Shown here: positions 1 to 7,097 of the stretch, in pieces
Numbering within the stretch: position 1 is the stretch's first letter
Layout of the letters: each line of letters opens with the position of its first letter
Assembly: GCA_030704615.1 (NCBI GenBank)
Contig: JAKLZA010000340.1
Span: 1-7,097, forward strand
From: Takakia lepidozioides
Taxonomy: Eukaryota > Plantae > Bryophyta
Length of the DNA stretch: 7,097 nucleotides
Direction: 5' to 3'
Notes under the pieces: model-generated
The model's input: only the letters and a program-made list of their open reading frames with translations
Told to the model about the DNA's origin: nothing
Database searches by the model: none
Program-made: the position numbers and the translations under genes

Positions 1-402
1 GTACCCACCGACGGAGGTGGAACGTGTTCATCACGCCAGCGGTGGATGAACCCATACATCTTTCTCATCAACAAGTTATAGTTTGAGATCTGCCACCGAA
101 GTCCATCCCCCCGGATGGAAATTCGGCGCCGCATTTACATCGAAGAGGGGATGGACTTCGTCGTGTCCAGTGGCTATCGGCCCACCTGGCAGTGACTGCC
201 CATAGTTTGCATGGCAGGGTAGGAAACTGAAACGGCTACATTCATGCAGCAGCCAATCTTCATCGGTCCAGGATCCTGTACGGGGGAAATTTAAATGTGC
301 CCTGGAGTGTGCCCTGGAATGTACCTCACTTCTGTATGACTGTGTTTCATTGTGTTGAATAACTCTCGGATTTGGCCCACTGTTTACAATTTGATGTCTC
401 AT
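1..402 (-). CDS. Partial spliced gene of unknown function continuing past the left edge
   Basis: ORF 402-76 joined through a putative intron 90-156 (GTCCAT..GGCAG, phase 0) gives ...WTDEDWLLHECSRFSFLPCHANYGQSLPGGPIATGHDE|ISNYNLLMRKMYGFIHRWRDEHVPPPSVG, open to the edge. A further intron at 276-329 is possible. The start codon is uncertain and I recognise no motif. Confidence 0.4.
97..160. repeat. 64-nt inverted repeat (hairpin) with a palindrome copy at its apex
   Basis: CGAAGTCCATCCCC (97-110) is the exact reverse complement of GGGGATGGACTTCG (147-160). The inner part GATGGAAATTCGGCGCCGCATTTACATC (114-141) is an imperfect palindrome of the same family. Confidence 0.9.
296..319. repeat. 12-bp tandem duplication
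   Basis: TGTGCCCTGGAG followed by TGTGCCCTGGAA. Confidence 0.8.
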
Positions 403-482
403 TTCTACAATTTGTCTGTCTGGTTGAATAAAGCAGAGTAACCGGTATGTGAGTCATGTGTCAAGAATATACCAGAGTAACG

Positions 483-745
483 CCATGTCGGACATTGAAA
501 TGCGGCACCGCATTTCCATGTCGGCATCGAAATGCGGCGCCGCATTTCCATGTCGGGATCGAAATGCGGTGCCGCATTTCCATGTCCACATCGAAATGCG
601 GCACAGCATTTCCATGTCGGACATCGAAATGCGGCACAGCATTTCCATGTCGGACATCGAAATTCGGCACCGCATTTCCATGTCGGACATCGAAATGCGG
701 CACCGCATTTCCATGTGGGACAAGAAAATGCGGTGCATCATTTCC
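483..745. repeat. Tandem array of 8 palindromic units, period 32-33 bp, consensus CATGTCGGACATCGAAATGCGGCACCGCATTTC
   Basis: Palindrome cores start at 497, 529, 561, 593, 626, 659, 692 and 725 (the last is degenerate). The linker ATGTC-G-GACAT is near constant. Confidence 0.97.
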
Positions 746-807
746 GTCCAGGTACACGAAATACCAACACGGGTCTATAAATTGATCAGAAAACGAGGTT
801 GGCATTG

Positions 808-1392
808 CAAATGCGGCGACGCATTTCCAGCTTGGCAATGGAAACTTCTTTTTGGACAAGGGAATGCGGTGCCGCATTTCCGTCCAACACTTCGAAAAGT
901 GCACCTATTTCCGACCAGCGCGATGGAATGCGTTACCGCATTTCCGAGAGAGGGTCTGCAAATTGACAAATTGCGATGTCCGTTCTGGAAATGCGGCGCC
1001 GCATTTCCATGTCCGTCATCGACTTTTTTTTTACAATGGAATGCGGTGCCAGTTTTTGCTGATGGGTCTGCAGTTCGAACAACCACCATCCCCAATATGG
1101 AAATGCGGCACCGCATTTCCAATCCCGCCATGTCGGCCTCCTTGTTCGACCTCCTTGTTCGACCTCTGTAAGCGTGGTGGCATCCATGCAATGAGCGGGA
1201 GAGGCCAAAACTGGCGTGTGGACAAAGGAAATTTTGGAAATGCGGCACCGCATTCCCAATTCAGATTACTTTTTACTATGCCAACATTGAAATGGAAAAA
1301 TTAGTCCCTCCCCTGTTTTGGAAATGCGGTGCCGCATTTCCAAAAGAGGTTCTTAGAGTTGCCAAAATTTTGGAAATGCCCTGACCCATTTC
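808..1392. repeat. Dispersed cluster of the same palindrome separated by unique DNA
   Basis: Copies at 808-827, 861-880, 925-944, 986-1009 (perfect 24-bp TGGAAATGCGGCGCCGCATTTCCA), 1038-1050 (half), 1098-1121, 1236-1257, 1316-1345 (14-bp arms) and 1373-1392 (degenerate). Confidence 0.95.
1137..1166. repeat. 13-bp tandem duplication
   Basis: CCTCCTTGTTCGA x2 followed by CCTC. Confidence 0.85.
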
Positions 1393-1529
1393 TGATTTTG
1401 GTAGCGTCCTGGTTTGGGCGATTGTGTGGCTGGAATGCACACTGGAGAGGGGTCACGAATGTCGGGCAGAATTTTCTTTATATACTCTGGAAGAGAATTT
1501 ACATTTACAGAGACTTCATTAAAATTCTA

Positions 1530-4500
1530 TTAATCTTGAAAATCATCGGAATCCTCATCCTGTTCTAGACTGTCCTGCTCCTCCTCCACCCCCTCAGTGC
1601 CTCTCTCATCTCCAGCGGACTGCTCGTTGGCCAGGCTTTCGAAAATCCCATCTTCCCCTTGCGGAACTGTCCATCTCACCTCCGTTGGGTCGTCTTCCTC
1701 CCTGTCTGCGTCGCTCTCATCCGCTGAATCACATATGTACTTTCGTACCCGTCTACCTGTCTGAGCTGCTGCCAACTCTTTCCTTATCCTTCTGTCCTCC
1801 CTAGCCCTCTCCAAAATCTGCTCTACTTTACTGGGATTCTCACTTCTTCTAATCGCTGTATTTGCGAGTTTAGCTGCATAACTAGGAAGGGAGTAGTCCC
1901 TCACCGGGCTCGTCATGAAGTCGGCCCTCGCAAAGAACGGGACATTCTTCCTGGCAGGAAGTGTAGGCCCTACATGTTTCGACCCGGACCCTGCAATCCT
2001 GCACATGACAATCATCAACGAGACTAATGAGAACCACAGTCGGGAAATTCCTTTGACATAAATGACCCAGAAGGCTTTGCAAACTTACAATGTTTGCACT
2101 CACTCGTATTCCGGGTTCTCCTCTGCATCAATGTCCACTGTGTCTTCCTCGGACTCCGACGAATCCGAGGAGACTTCCGCTCTGTCGGGAGCCTTCACAT
2201 TCCGTTGCAGCCCCTCCAGATGGGATCCCCACACGGATGAATCCTCCTCGTAGGCAAAGAGGTGCCGGTCGGAAAACCGCCCAGCCCACATTGAGGCACC
2301 TGTTACAATGCCATCCACACATTACCACATGGCGCTTCAGATGTTGCGAACTACATCCTAACGAGAATTTGCAGAACAGCAGAGATCAAGATTCTGCATA
2401 CCTGTCCCACAGATGAGGTCCAGCACTGTGCCCTCCACGTCTGTGCATGTCTCCATAATTGTCTGAATGAAGGCAGGGCTCCGAGTCCGTGAGTACCGCA
2501 GGGGTTCCGTTGAAGTGAGGCTATGAGGGAGAAGTTCCTTGGGAACGTTGTTGAACAGAACGTCGTAATCGAGTGGGTCGCAGTTCGGGTCAACCTTTCC
2601 TCCCTCCTTCCGGAAAGCAAAGGTGGAGTTTTCCTTCACAAAGCAGTATGCATCGAACTGCTTTGTCTGCATACACAGGGGGAAAACGATTAGAAACCGA
2701 ATGCGGCACCGCATTTGAAAGCACCCAAGCAAATGAATGGACGAGTGCCAGTGTCGTAATCACCTTCTTCCCTTCCGACCGAAGGCCCAGTGTGTTGATG
2801 CACGTCCACTTCTTTTTCAGAATCGGGACGGCGCTCTTGCGGGTCCACTTCGCAATTCCTGTCTGAGTGTTTTTTCCTCTGCTCGCCAGGACAACCACAC
2901 AGCCTCTGTCGTCCAACACCATGCGGGCAAGCCCGAATCCTTTCTTCCAAAAGTCCTCCGAGTACCTGTTCCAAGATGGCAAAGCTTGCAGTCCTTCCAC
3001 AGGCTCTCCGTCCGGAATATCCAAGATGATCATATCGCAAGACCACTCGGTGGCATTTCCGCCCCTCCTACAATCCTTGTCTGCACACACCCTCTCAAAG
3101 AACGAGACCATATTCTGAAATCCTGGGGTGTCGGAAGGCTCTTCGGCAGTCGCCTTCTTCAGTGCTCTGCCCTTCAGACCCTCCATGGTCTTCATGTATG
3201 CCAACTTGGCTGCCCGTCCATCCAAAGCCGCCAAGAAACTCTCATTTACACACTGGACTACAGTTTCGGGAGCCACTTTCGGCCTCTTCATTTCCACCGG
3301 CTCGAAAGGGTGCCCCCTGGGGGGTTGAAGAGTGCCTTCTTTGCCGAGCCAGTTCTCGTGCCTCTGGTGACAACGGTGGGCACAGGGGAGGCAGCCTGCG
3401 TTTGGGGGTGGGCTGGTTGCAAAGTCTCCATCGGAGTCCTCTTCCTCACCCTCTTCCTGAACAGGCTGTTTCTGCTTCTTCGTTTTGGCGGGTGTCACAA
3501 CAGCTGCTCCTTGCTGGCGAGTCCTCTTCTTCGACCTCTTCTGTTGGGCCTGCACAGCTGCATCCACCGTCTTTTGTGCCATCTCAGCTGCCTTTCTGGA
3601 TTCTTCCAGAGCAGCAGATTCCTTTGCCGACTTTGGCCCAGCAGGGACACGTCTTTCCTTTCTCTTCTCTTCTGCCAAGGCGTGCAGATCTTTCTCAGAC
3701 TCGTCAACAATACCGCCAGACATGTCCAGGTGCCACGGGCATCCAACGAGATGCGCGGGATGCCATTGTTTCTGCATCTCGGGTGTGTAGACACAGCTTG
3801 GGCCCGCCACGGTCCAAGCCATGAAGAACGGGGGCTCTTGAGCCAGGGCCCCTGTCTGAAGGAGCACGTATTTCATATACCTGCAAGGCAGTCAGCATGC
3901 GTGAGCAAAACTTGAGACCAACCTACTCGCAGAGTGCCACCGAAAACATAAAATGCGAATGCGGTGCCGCATTTCCGAGACAAACCTCGTAACCAGGCTT
4001 CGCATACAAGGGCAGCTGTGCTTCACCTGTAAACAATTCGCATTGCAGCTTTCCCGCTCCCTCCTGATGTGTAAACTCCACGCTCTTTCTTGCTGTCTGT
4101 AGCTCTCTGGCGAAAAGGTTGTCCTTGTACGCACATCTGAAACGTGTCACGTAGTCTTCCAATGTCTGTGTTCCATCCCATTTGACGTACAAGCCGAACG
4201 AATTTGTGTGCATTACGACTTGCTCCTTTGCATTCGACATTACCTGCCATTCCCAAATGCATTGTCACGTAGCAGTTCAGGGAATTCATGTCAGAAAAGC
4301 AAATCTGGGGAAGTACCTTGAATTACCTGGAACCACCAAGTCATACGGTTGAGCCACACATCCACTGCAGGGTCGGAAACTTCCAGTGGAAAAGACCACA
4401 TTGTCCTTATGCTCTCGGATGCATTCCAGATCGACAGCCACCGTGTCTGCCATTTCCGATCCAATGTCAGTGGCTGGAAGAGAGTGGCTATTGCTAGGAA

Positions 4501-5713
4501 GGAAATTCAGTGCATTGAAACCTCACCTTCTCTTTCGCCTCCACACATGCCGTTGAGAGGTGATGCAGTTTCTCCAATTGCATGGTCGGCTGCATGGCCC
4601 GAGAATAGTGTTTTGCAATCTCGGGGATGAAGTCCTTTCCAAGTGCCGGATCTGCAATTGCCACCAGCTTCACAAGCTTTGACTTGTATTTGGTTCTGGA
4701 CTTGACACCGGCTTCCTTCAAGTGCTCAGTCAATGACTGCAACGTTTTGACCTGCCCCTCACTTTCCATGAAGAAGCGTTTGGCATGGGCCAAATCCAGC
4801 TTGATGTTTGACTGCCAACAAAAACATGCAGAAGCGTTACATTCGATTCATGTGGAAACATTACTGGAAATTGGGGAAGGATGAGCAGAGGGAAATTGGA
4901 GCACGACTTACTTCGTATATCACCTCCACCATTCCATCCATAGTGAGACGATACCATGTCCGGTCTGTTTTTGCAACGGCTTTCTGAATGAGCTCCGGCT
5001 CCAGCATTTCCGCAAACATCTGCGGATCAGTAAGACCAGTTTTCCTCACCCTGTACAGCATATGTGCCATGTGGGTATGCACGTACGCATTCTCAGTGAC
5101 CCTGCAAGGCACACTCTCCAGTTCAGTACACGGAAGCACGGAATCAAACCAGAATGGAAACCGAAATGCGGCACCGCATTTCGAATGTGCTAGGGAGGGT
5201 ATGAGTATCTTACGAGTTGAGGTCCGCCATGGCATTCTTGAGGAGGGAGGAGTCTGCCGCCTTCACCTTGAGGATGACACACTCCACCATGTAATGCCAG
5301 CCAATGTGCTTGGCATGGTTCTGCTTGATGTACTCCCACCAGGCGAGAAGTCGGTGATTCCCGTCCCACACAAAGAACATTTTTCCCGACATATGGCCGA
5401 AGTCGGGATCACCCTTCAGCGTCGCCTCGAATTCGTGGTTGCGAGTGTGCCAGTGGGTATCCCACGTTGACAATTCATCGGCAGTGGGTCCACGGGTTTC
5501 GCCGTCCTCATTCTCTATGGAAACGTAAAACGCTGCCGATCCCAGACGGTACCCGCTTCTCGAAATGCGAACTTTGAGCTTATCCACATCTCCGGGAAAG
5601 GGCCTGCCTGACGATGGGAAGGGAGACCATGCGACAGAGTGGGATTCGAAGAGTCCGCTGGAATACCCTGCTGCCAGAACTCTGCCAATGCTACTGTGTG
5701 TCTCCTCCAACAT
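1530..5713 (-). CDS. Spliced ParB/Srx-like + beta-class amino (N6A/N4C) DNA methyltransferase-like fusion protein, about 1125 aa from ATG 5713 (true start probably upstream). Exons: 5713-5214, 5101-4912, 4811-4527, 4446-4327, 4243-4008, 3880-2764, 2666-2402, 2299-2104, 1998-1530
   Basis: Manual splicing at GT..AG sites gives introns 5102-5213, 4812-4911, 4447-4526, 4244-4326, 3881-4007, 2667-2763, 2300-2401 and 1999-2103. All phases match. Exons total 3378 nt (1126 codons) and end in TAA at 1532-1530. Splicing rebuilds a continuous MTase motif across one junction (VLDLICGT|GASMWAGRFSDRHLFAYEED). The donor at 4007 is the least certain, with an alternative at 3985 that would need a frameshift. 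Confidence 0.85.
2210..3261 (-). other. Beta-class amino-methyltransferase-like domain (N6_N4_Mtase type), split by two introns
   Basis: Motifs occur in beta order. CDMIILDIPDG is at the motif IV position (DIPD 3021-3010). LARMVLDDRGCVVVL resembles rvLkpgG-hydrophobic. RSPAFIQTIMETCTDVEGTVLDLICGTG resembles KP..l...lI...t..gd.VLDPF.GSG (motif X-I). ASMWAGRFSDRHLFAYEED resembles tt..aa...gR..igiE.d (motif II). Confidence 0.8.
2698..2717. repeat. Intronic palindrome copy (intron 2667-2763)
   Basis: CGAATGCGGCACCGCATTTG. Confidence 0.92.
3956..3976. repeat. Intronic palindrome copy (intron 3881-4007)
   Basis: CGAATGCGGTGCCGCATTTCC. Confidence 0.92.
5162..5183. repeat. Intronic palindrome copy (intron 5102-5213)
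   Basis: CGAAATGCGGCACCGCATTTCG, with perfect 10-bp arms. Confidence 0.95.
5214..5660 (-). other. ParB/sulfiredoxin-fold (ParB N-terminal-like) domain
   Basis: KMFFVWDGNHRLLAW (DGNHR at 5365-5351) matches the hydrophobic strand + DG-x-H-R + helix signature of the ParB/Srx fold. It is followed by a VECVIL strand and an AMADLN helix. Confidence 0.7.
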
Positions 5714-6740
5714 TTTATCCGCTGCACTTTTGAAATCCTCCGAGACATGTCTGTAGGTGCCGGTAGTGGCTGAGCAGGTGGAGCATCCTCAACTGGAGCT
5801 GCACTCTGGGGCCTGTGTGCGGGCAATTCTGCCACTGCAGAGGCCTCCTCCGGGCCTGCTAGCTCATCGGTGGTGAGGTCTGCCTGCGAACGTTCAGCGG
5901 CAGCACCCTCCTCCGGTACCAAATCGAGATCAACGGTCGATCCCATTGCCTTCGCTGCAGCAGAGTCGGCCCCAACATCTGCAGGCGGGAAATCCTCCAG
6001 GAACTGAGCTTCAGCTCGTGGAAGCGGTTTTTGCGGGAGATTGTTCGGGCCGTCGCCCTGATTGCCTTCTGCTTCCTCATCCTTGCAGGTGAAGGTGTCT
6101 GCTGCAATAGAATCTGTCTTCTACCTGCTGCTTCATTCGCGTTGGGGGGGGTGAATCGGCCTGAGCCGGTTCAGAAGCCAGTAGAGGGACGGGCTGCTTC
6201 TTCTTCGACTTTGCTGGAGAAGGGCCCGACCCCTGCTGGCGATTCTCCATGATCGAAGAACGCGAGTCGATCTCTGAGACTTTGAACTTGCCCTTCGAAG
6301 ACGCGTCTTTGAATCGCAGAGGGCTAGGCCCGGCAGGAGTACCCGCGCTCGGGGATCGGGTGGGTGTACGTGCTGCAGCTAGCTCCTCGACTCTTCCTGC
6401 GGCTCTTCGGATTCCTGCGATCCCTCCAGCACGTCCACCTTTCCTGTTAGGCATGCAAACATGTTCTGCATTCAAGTCTCCTAGCATTCAGTCTAAGAAT
6501 TACAGAAGCAAATGGGGGTTCGGTGCTCGATCAGCTGCGCGCAGCCCGATCGCATGGAGCTCTCACTGGTGGCTGGGTGCCTGAGTGGCCTGCTGCTCGG
6601 AGATGGCAATCTCCTCCTTAGTAGACGCATCTGCTTTCTCCCCTTCGGCATTGGCCTACGTCCGAAGTATAATTTTCCGGAGCTTTGCGACGAGGTCTCC
6701 TGTCTGGTGCACGAACTCCCCCCCTCTCAGGTTCGAGCAT
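5714..6740 (-). pseudogene. Probable low-complexity N-terminal coding region of the same gene, interrupted by frameshifts (decay or assembly indels)
   Basis: Successive A/E/P/S/K-rich segments lie in different frames: MLEPERGG..RRPRRKAPENYT (ATG 6740); ANAEGEKADASTKEE..SHQ; a likely intron at about 6444-6566 (GTGAGA..CTAACAG); KGGRAGG..PAKSKKKQ; TDSIAAD..EEAEG..PAPTD; then VSEDFKSAADKM leading into ATG 5713. Frame switches are needed near 6655, 6120 and 5750. Confidence 0.55.
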
Positions 6741-6815
6741 AAGAAGAACAGAGAGAGGAAAAGGGGCAAAGAGTGCAGATGGAAAGGGCGCGAGAGGGTG
6801 ACTGAGGAGACACGA
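6741..6815 (-). promoter_or_regulatory. Pyrimidine-rich (CT) leader immediately 5' of the candidate ATG at 6740
   Basis: The minus strand reads ...CTCTTTGCCCCTTTTCCTCTCTCTGTTCTTCTT-ATG. CT-rich tracts are typical of plant 5' UTRs and core promoters. Confidence 0.35.
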
Positions 6816-7087
6816 CAAAAGTAGATGAAACGCGGTGATGCACCACTTGGGTTCGAAAGTTGGACGAAAGTGTCTCCTCGTGGAGTTTGCGTCATTACGA
6901 AATTCGAATCGTTGAGGGTACGCCCGCCGTCCGAAAATCAAACATCATTATCCAACGGTCAGGCCGCGCCGCCTCATGCCCTTCAGTCAGATAGAGTGCC
7001 GACATGTGCAGCAAATTCCGTTGCTCCACGTGTTCACATTTCAAAGGCATTTCCGTCCCAGCGTTCATGAGTTTGGAGCGAGAATGC

Positions 7088-7097
7088 GAATGCGGCG
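7088..7097. repeat. Probable palindrome copy truncated by the window edge
   Basis: GAATGCGGCG, in the same AATGCGAATGCGG context seen at 3952-3964. Confidence 0.6.

Follow-up and report, generated by a model that had tools for sequence, protein, structure and literature searches.

A 7,097-nt stretch of the Takakia lepidozioides genome (contig JAKLZA010000340.1 of assembly GCA_030704615.1, positions 1–7,097 of the forward strand; analysed at its full length and hereafter called the window) carries many copies of one palindrome beside, and within the introns of, a spliced gene predicted from models and profile matches of its relatives to fuse a ParB-fold domain to a methyltransferase (MTase)-like domain. 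On the evidence of sequence comparison, we estimate at about one half the probability that these palindromes are double-stranded binding sites for the gene’s own ParB-fold protein, encoded by a spliced accessory gene of a high-copy element.

A scan of the window for AATGCGGYRCCGCATT with at most three mismatches returned 20 matches, 12 of them exact, where 0.09 were expected, and none of 200 shuffled sequences equalled this count. A wider scan, with the 20-mer and up to five mismatches across its 18 arm positions, identified 21 palindromes against an expectation of 0.24: 17 at 497–1392, one at 118, and three within introns (2698, 3956, and 5163). None falls within the 4,090 nt of modelled exon. 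Eight of the sites form a tandem array with a unit of 32–33 nt, and a half copy is truncated by the window end. As the gene lies on the minus strand, the cluster at 497–1392 is located 3′ of it, so that the initial annotation, which had described about 22 copies of one palindrome, a dense cluster just 3′ of the gene and further copies inside introns, is borne out by 21 sites plus the half copy at the edge. The exact palindrome as a pair was absent from the metagenome contigs searched, and prokaryote genomes contain three single copies of it, approximately the chance level.

Substitutions are very unevenly distributed across the sites. The central CpG has changed to CA, TG, or TA in 17 of 21 window sites, whereas arm CpGs are altered in only 1 of 42 cases, and the same disparity holds for the dispersed sites alone (10 of 13 central versus 1 of 26 arm CpGs, p = 4e-6); in old homologous loci, decay is found at all core positions. 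The flanks of the intronic sites are unrelated (identity 0.30–0.35, against 0.29 for random sequence), yet their arms are the window’s own. Dispersed sites that change together require either a reader or a copying process, and insertion in the manner of miniature inverted-repeat transposable elements was ruled out, since the three intronic palindromes lack target-site duplications. Spacing supplies another regularity: the distances in the window array (32–33, 50–53, 62–64, 83–84, and 137 nt) are best described by a 10.5-nt period (mean cosine 0.8; counting tandem units once, p = 0.0025), and phasing was also significant over all 61 spacings of the relatives (p = 0.008). Recognition of the sites as RNA hairpins was considered and rejected, as there was no Rfam match, one of the three site-bearing introns folds better than its shuffles, and the orientation of the centre is mixed (CA in nine, TG in seven).

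Palindromes also accompany the same gene elsewhere. A metagenome scan yielded 281 confirmed stretches, and the best 80 of these were reduced at 97% identity, by taking the longest of each group, to 46 distinct loci of metagenomic origin. These loci repeat the window’s exons. The window’s own palindrome, allowing two mismatches, was absent from the best 80 of the 281, and a motif-free search uncovered other palindrome families in many loci; once C-to-T decay is allowed for, most of these reduce to the core found in the window, CGG-YR-CCG (class I), with different arms. At least two class I sites were present within 2 kb upstream of the ParB exon in 21 of the 38 loci with at least 1 kb of upstream sequence, compared with none of 100 distal and none of 380 simulated segments. 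The density of class I sites is 10.6 per 10 kb in these 2 kb, 2.3 in the next 3 kb, and 0.3–0.6 upstream of −2 kb or beyond +6 kb; because the class was defined after the data had been seen, the make-up of the core is partly circular, but its position is not. Outer arms are 0.78 identical within a locus, 0.76 within a well-supported ParB clade (16 pairs), and 0.47 between clades (215 pairs), and the window’s arms are 0.09–0.34 identical to those of other loci. The earlier proposal that homologous loci in other genomes should possess palindromes of their own thus agrees with what was found at 21 of 38 loci, with arms specific to the clade. A division of the loci into palindrome classes I and II by clade was discarded, as it entailed five changes each and several loci have both types.

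A second type of palindrome, with CCGG or CTCGAG at its centre, occurs alone or mixed with the CGG-YR-CCG type, and may have another reader; it was noted within 2 kb upstream of the ParB exon in L023, L040, L055, L077, L027, L043, L035, L058, L075, L041, and L064. Other arrangements include arrays downstream of the ParB exon whose tandem units of 25 or 50 nt contain an imperfect palindrome (L014:5590–6000, L019:5640–5980, L071:8396–8460 and 12918–13140), and tandem 51-nt units with one palindrome each, situated ∼2.5–2.8 kb after the start of the ParB exon and just before the MTase exon (L007, L020, L079).

The assignment of the ParB-fold domain draws on relatives of the window’s gene. A HMMER search with the ParB exon over 1.84 billion representatives recovered 378 relatives, 95 of them with E < 1e-10, and organism names were obtained for 7 of the 20 clusters looked up: Riccia sorocarpa (5), Adiantum nelumboides, and Adiantum capillus-veneris. 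A Riccia protein of 1,207 aa, P0153, matches the spliced ParB-plus-middle part of the window’s gene with E = 2e-18. For another relative, P0001, which is 46% identical to the window exon, a model with a predicted local distance difference test (pLDDT) score of 88.6 was obtained, and the top Foldseek rows for this model are nearly all ParB/Srx-fold proteins. By Z scores (VIA) from a re-comparison limited to Foldseek’s list, ParB 6sdk, which binds cytidine triphosphate (CTP), ranks first (Z 8.9, root-mean-square deviation 2.4, 95 residues aligned), followed by Noc and KorB (CTP-binding folds at Z 8.1–8.9), with sulfiredoxins at Z 5.1–6.1. The GxxR motif (Box II), which reads GNHR in the window, retains its glycine in 64 of 70 rows and its arginine in 62 of 70, and the downstream asparagine is kept as well. 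Neither the window exons nor the relatives matched a canonical ParB family in Pfam or NCBIfam, and the window exons gave chance matches alone (e.g. Levivirus coat) against Pfam, NCBIfam, and PDB sequences. Three word-based protein searches, the first with a query partly in the wrong frame, returned no relatives, nor did sequence searches of viral contigs and phage collections; a single-sequence fold of the window exon was unusable (pLDDT 44.5). In runs X9 and X10, contigs that match window positions 5328–5381 have the DGNHR stretch within unlike flanks, and represent more distant ParB-family genes of the same organism.

For the MTase-like domain, the window exons alone had no Pfam match. P0153 matches the window’s spliced MTase part with E = 2e-14 and PF01555 with E = 5e-5, under the cut-off, and Atlas neighbours carry PF01555 (0.92). 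By eye, motif IV precedes motif I, which is the beta-class arrangement, and the domain is kept across relatives. The catalytic motif of beta-class N6A/N4C methyltransferases follows the pattern [DNS]PP[YFW]; motif IV instead reads DIPD in the window, DLPT in Riccia, and DFPI in Adiantum. Among the rows from the loci, 14 are readable at this motif, 1 of which has an aromatic fourth residue, and 13 more are gapped or broken there. A motif IV without an aromatic fourth residue suggests, by comparison with this pattern, that catalysis has been lost or altered. The ParB–MTase fusion of the initial annotation therefore stands as to its domains, through the predicted ParB fold and the weak PF01555 match of the Riccia relative, though canonical profiles fail to match and the catalytic aromatic is absent; its suggestion that the protein methylates the element is not supported, given that motif IV lacks this residue family-wide.

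The setting of the gene is probably that of a mobile element, as had been supposed. Run X1 contributes 45,630 contigs on 760–7097 (24,345 at 99% identity or above, 17,551 at 95–99%, 3,485 at 90–95%, and 249 under 90%), and the X4 assembly (1.75 million letters) covers all 30 window bins; depth itself is no copy number, but the spread of variants indicates a large repeat family. One contig extends 165 letters past the window’s left edge. Remnants of an opposite-strand upstream gene are present in 10 of the 22 loci with at least 5 kb upstream, the query locus L023 included, and by eye this gene combines a WRKY-GCM1-like zinc domain with DDE-like motifs and is SWIM-like at its end (L023, L036, L064, and others), a layout described for Mutator-like transposases (PMC1702500). 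The element is likely a Mutator-like DNA transposon of a seed-free plant. In the five loci that have both a transposase remnant and arrays, the sites accompany the ParB gene and are mostly separated from the remnant by kilobases. Several loci share the remains of another gene, which lies downstream of the ParB–MTase gene and converges with it; these were observed on the minus strand at L036:18285–18826, L058:16003–16287, L018:15539–16059, L035:13293–13800, L079:19899–20326, and L020:20346–20482, and the gene has no match in Pfam or in the window.

Since it is the ParB gene rather than the transposase that the sites accompany, the ParB–MTase protein is the best candidate for their reader. A dimer of this protein would bind each palindrome via its two arms and ignore the central YR, and neighbouring dimers would occupy one face of the helix and cooperate across the phased sites. 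Occupancy could mark the element as self, and so shield or regulate it: shielding would keep the promoter region and the arms free of host silencing by 5-methylcytosine (5mC), and an alternative role would be autoregulation of the divergent transposase and accessory genes. The MTase-like domain, likely catalytically impaired, might then serve as a DNA- or S-adenosylmethionine-binding module, and the ParB domain as a probable switch gated by nucleoside triphosphate (NTP) rather than as a segregation motor. Self-protection or autoregulation fits better than segregation. The functional model that we favour is provided by the VANC anti-silencing proteins of VANDAL Mutator-like elements, which reportedly bind motifs in the non-coding DNA of their own element and lower its methylation; no homology is expected, and we know of no VANDAL motifs that are palindromes read by a ParB-fold protein. 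A bolder proposal, which we regard as improbable, would extend these ideas to seed-free land plants in general, with widespread transposons whose ParB-fold, NTP-gated clamp loads on private, helically phased parS-like palindromes, spreads, and keeps the element unsilenced or delivers a DNA mark, with clade-wise specificity around a fixed CGG-YR-CCG core; this would amount to a functional ParB/parS system of self-recognition in eukaryotes.

Several observations weigh against binding of the sites by the ParB-fold protein. The fold was predicted on the relative P0001, with Foldseek E-values of 0.04 or worse, and no DNA-binding domain was found, the long relatives having no match to a helix-turn-helix (HTH) profile. 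Phasing among the relatives is weak after shared spacings are collapsed (p = 0.06–0.09, with p = 0.09 for 38 spacings), and the window’s spacings may derive from two ancestral units of ∼32 and ∼52 nt, which would leave fewer independent spacings. Seventeen of the 38 loci lack the two upstream class I sites; seven of these have the second palindrome type, L013 has an array missed by the filter, and nine are without any. Clade-specific arms are expected from co-inheritance alone. As for the element, no transposase or element end lies within the window, Pfam did not confirm the transposase (26 broken fragments), and neither terminal inverted repeats nor a target-site duplication were found in 20 long loci, where the element ends may have decayed or fall beyond the sequence available.

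The sites might instead be read by the WRKY-GCM1-type zinc domain of the transposase, or by the product of a third element gene, for synapsis or autoregulation, with the ParB–MTase gene merely lying among them. The divergent gene of the relatives, with its WRKY-GCM1-like, DDE-like, and SWIM-like motifs, could encode such a reader; the upstream array is located between the two divergent genes, the existence of a second palindrome type makes two readers possible, and the window’s half site has ATGCGG in common with the GCM site ATGCGGGT (PMC2172107). This likeness, however, is confined to the window’s arms, other clades sharing only CGG, and the sites cluster at or inside the ParB gene, not at or beyond the transposase, just as the algal arrays discussed below adjoin a ParB gene (bioRxiv 10.1101/2025.02.11.637652). 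We consider a transposase reader unlikely, although it is the main rival. Somewhat less probable still is an active N4C/N6A methyltransferase directed to the sites, where it would mark the element, in which case N4-methylcytosine (4mC) in the arms would block 5mC and explain their low decay. Such activity has been proposed for an Ectocarpus protein (PMC12477816), and 4mC methyltransferases are described as acting in Marchantia (bioRxiv 10.1101/2021.02.12.428880). The conservation of the domain, its beta-class motif order, the PF01555 matches in the liverwort relative and the Atlas neighbours, and the sparing of arm CpGs all accord with it. Protein occupancy or selection accounts equally well for the spared arms, and the motif IV residues of the window, Riccia, Adiantum, and all but one of the readable rows argue against catalysis.

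The initial annotation had further envisaged a CTP-dependent clamp acting in segregation or packaging, and a true parS/ParB system of this kind would use a sliding clamp to tether or segregate excised or extrachromosomal copies. The window’s array recalls F-plasmid sopC, in which tandem units each contain a palindrome, the closest solved folds are the CTP-binding ParB, Noc, and KorB, ahead of sulfiredoxin, and GxxR and its downstream asparagine are kept. The motif, however, is GNHR rather than of the GERR type, no TIGR or Pfam ParB profile or HTH was matched, and the deviant Walker A motif of ParA, [KS]GGxGK[ST], was absent from all 282 frames (six per sequence) of the 46 loci, which are partial and decayed, and the window. 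Moreover, ParB-fold proteins are described as binding various NTPs or none, with a specificity not predictable from sequence (bioRxiv 10.1101/2025.10.10.680097), and a phage ParB activates its DNA-modifying partner without requiring its own NTP residues (PMC13229309). The clamp, segregation, and packaging are not supported by these comparisons, and we regard such a system as very improbable. It is no more credible that the palindromes are passive, as products of tandem duplication and gene conversion or as sites for host factors. Eight of them do form a plain tandem array, and arms are inherited with the element, but this reading is hard to reconcile with single sites in unrelated intron flanks that lack target-site duplications, with the total exclusion of sites from exons, with the selective sparing of arm CpGs, or with the recurrence of the same core and position across ParB lineages that are ∼40–50% identical.

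Binding by the element’s own ParB-fold protein has precedents in algae. Sola1-1_Ec32 of the brown alga Ectocarpus encodes, on the strand opposite its transposase, an accessory protein of 1,104 aa with ParB and N4/N6 MTase domains that was proposed to bind and modify its own element, and Iyer et al. 2011 is cited there for similar proteins (PMC12477816). The window’s gene resembles it in joining ParB-like and methyltransferase-like domains in one protein of similar size (∼1,100 aa), encoded opposite in strand to the transposase-like gene of the relatives. Compared by description, the two differ in that the window’s family belongs to land plants, has a Mutator-like neighbour rather than a Sola element, and combines a degenerate catalytic motif with arrays that share a core, whereas the available text of the Ectocarpus report mentions no palindrome array. 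Red-algal Plavaka elements carry the ParB-like accessory gene PAG3, assigned by HHpred at E = 0.29, which adjoins tandem inverted-repeat arrays and for which self-recognition was proposed on slender evidence (bioRxiv 10.1101/2025.02.11.637652). The association of a ParB-like gene with inverted-repeat arrays is common to both, and a PF01555 methylase (PAG2) occurs on the same Plavaka element; as described, however, PAG3 is fused to a 2-oxoglutarate oxygenase, and a separate gene encodes the methylase together with a SET domain, while in the window’s gene the predicted ParB and MTase-like domains belong to one protein and single sites occur in introns as well. With bacterial ParB/parS, Noc, and KorB, the family shares the predicted ParB fold, the GxxR phosphate motif, and clustered palindromes beside the gene, but it has no ParA motif nearby and no HTH or canonical profile match, and it departs from bacterial ParB in being a spliced eukaryotic gene with a large insertion in the fold and a fused MTase-like domain. 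Prokaryotic and phage fusions of ParB with N6N4 methyltransferases have the same two domains in the same order (PMC4738411; bioRxiv 10.1101/2025.10.10.680097), and are a likely source of the gene. Unlike the phage ParB-MTases, the plant proteins have a long inserted middle region and a changed motif IV, and phage and viral collections contained no sequence match.

A predicted ParB-like domain fused to a predicted domain of DNA-modifying type, with palindrome arrays beside the gene, is the make-up of a ParB accessory gene of transposons. Neither the land-plant family nor its palindromes are described in the literature searched, although the supplements of the algal papers, which were outside the search, may list plant relatives. 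The concept of self-recognition is already published for red- and brown-algal transposons; the land-plant family is new, and comes with much stronger evidence for the sites. Very few cases are known in which a transposon recognises and protects its own DNA, and this family offers a defined site, specificity variants paired with protein clades, informative versus neutral positions, and a predicted spacing rule. If correct, binding by the ParB-fold protein would add to eukaryotes a new class of sequence-specific reader that descends from a bacterial NTP switch, and would show one way in which the DNA transposons of liverworts, ferns, and related plants escape silencing.

The spliced gene described initially, with its DGNHR motif, was recovered on the minus strand with eight modelled introns and the motif at 5365–5351 (Table 1). 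The modelled boundaries are GT-AG for seven introns, and also for the eighth if it starts at 4026. The reading frame of the gene continues uninterrupted for 1,083 codons between 5605 and the stop at 1530 if one base is gained near 4026–4052, and most copies in runs X1 and X4 have one extra base near 4052. One contig of run X10 skips the introns 4447–4526 and 4244–4326; that X10 is RNA is a guess, no run being on record as RNA. Relative to the majority, the window copy has many small frame-breaking indels (12 of 35 shown), several of them in or just before the ParB domain, and the IPLCRM and DGNHR blocks, which the relatives have in one frame, are in different frames. These breaks may be real decay or assembly errors, between which the contigs do not discriminate. 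Over 760–7097, C/G swaps and single-base indels abound among the differences between the window and most copies, an unusual spectrum that could stem from errors of sequencing or consensus.

Table 1. Positions of the palindromes and of the modelled parts of the ParB–MTase gene in the window.
Feature	Position	Strand	Remark
Single palindrome copy	118..137	.	in ORF-like (open reading frame-like) + strand stretch
Tandem array, 32–33 nt units (∼3 helical turns each), 8 palindromes	483..744	.	
Nine dispersed palindromes, spacings 50–137 nt, close to whole helical turns	808..1392	.	
Last exon, acidic tail, stop codon	1530..1998	-	part matches 3 homologous loci
Exon, end of MTase-like domain after motif I	2104..2299	-	
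Exon, MTase-like C-half ending in motif I (DLICGT/G, split by intron)	2402..2666	-	
Intronic palindrome	2698..2717	.	intron 2667–2763
Large exon: conserved block, low-complexity linker, MTase-like N-half with motif IV variant DIPD (3021–3010)	2764..3880	-	
Intronic palindrome	3956..3975	.	intron 3881–4026
Middle-region exon; one-base difference from most copies near 4052	4027..4243	-	
Middle-region exon; both flanking introns skipped in run X10 contig	4327..4446	-	
Middle-region exon, matched in 19 of 46 homologous loci	4527..4811	-	
Exon after ParB domain	4912..5101	-	
Intronic palindrome	5163..5182	.	intron 5102–5213
Predicted ParB-fold domain; IPLCRM block at ∼5651–5605, other frame than DGNHR block in window copy	5214..5660	-	
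Low-complexity 5′ coding region, frame broken in window copy, gene start not fixed	5661..6443	-	from sequence only; indels relative to copies
Half palindrome, cut by window end	7087..7097	.	likely start of upstream array seen in relatives (position comparison)

The left end of the window has features of its own. An ORF-like stretch on the + strand (1–198, with one in-frame stop) is convergent with the ParB–MTase gene and contains the palindrome at 118. Positions 1–277 recur at ∼99% identity in run X8, from another organism, which has few words in common with the rest of the element. A short 12-nt tandem repeat occupies 294–322, and contigs of run X4 exit the window at 310 and return at 321 with long unrelated sequence between, so that many copies seem to bear an extra segment there.

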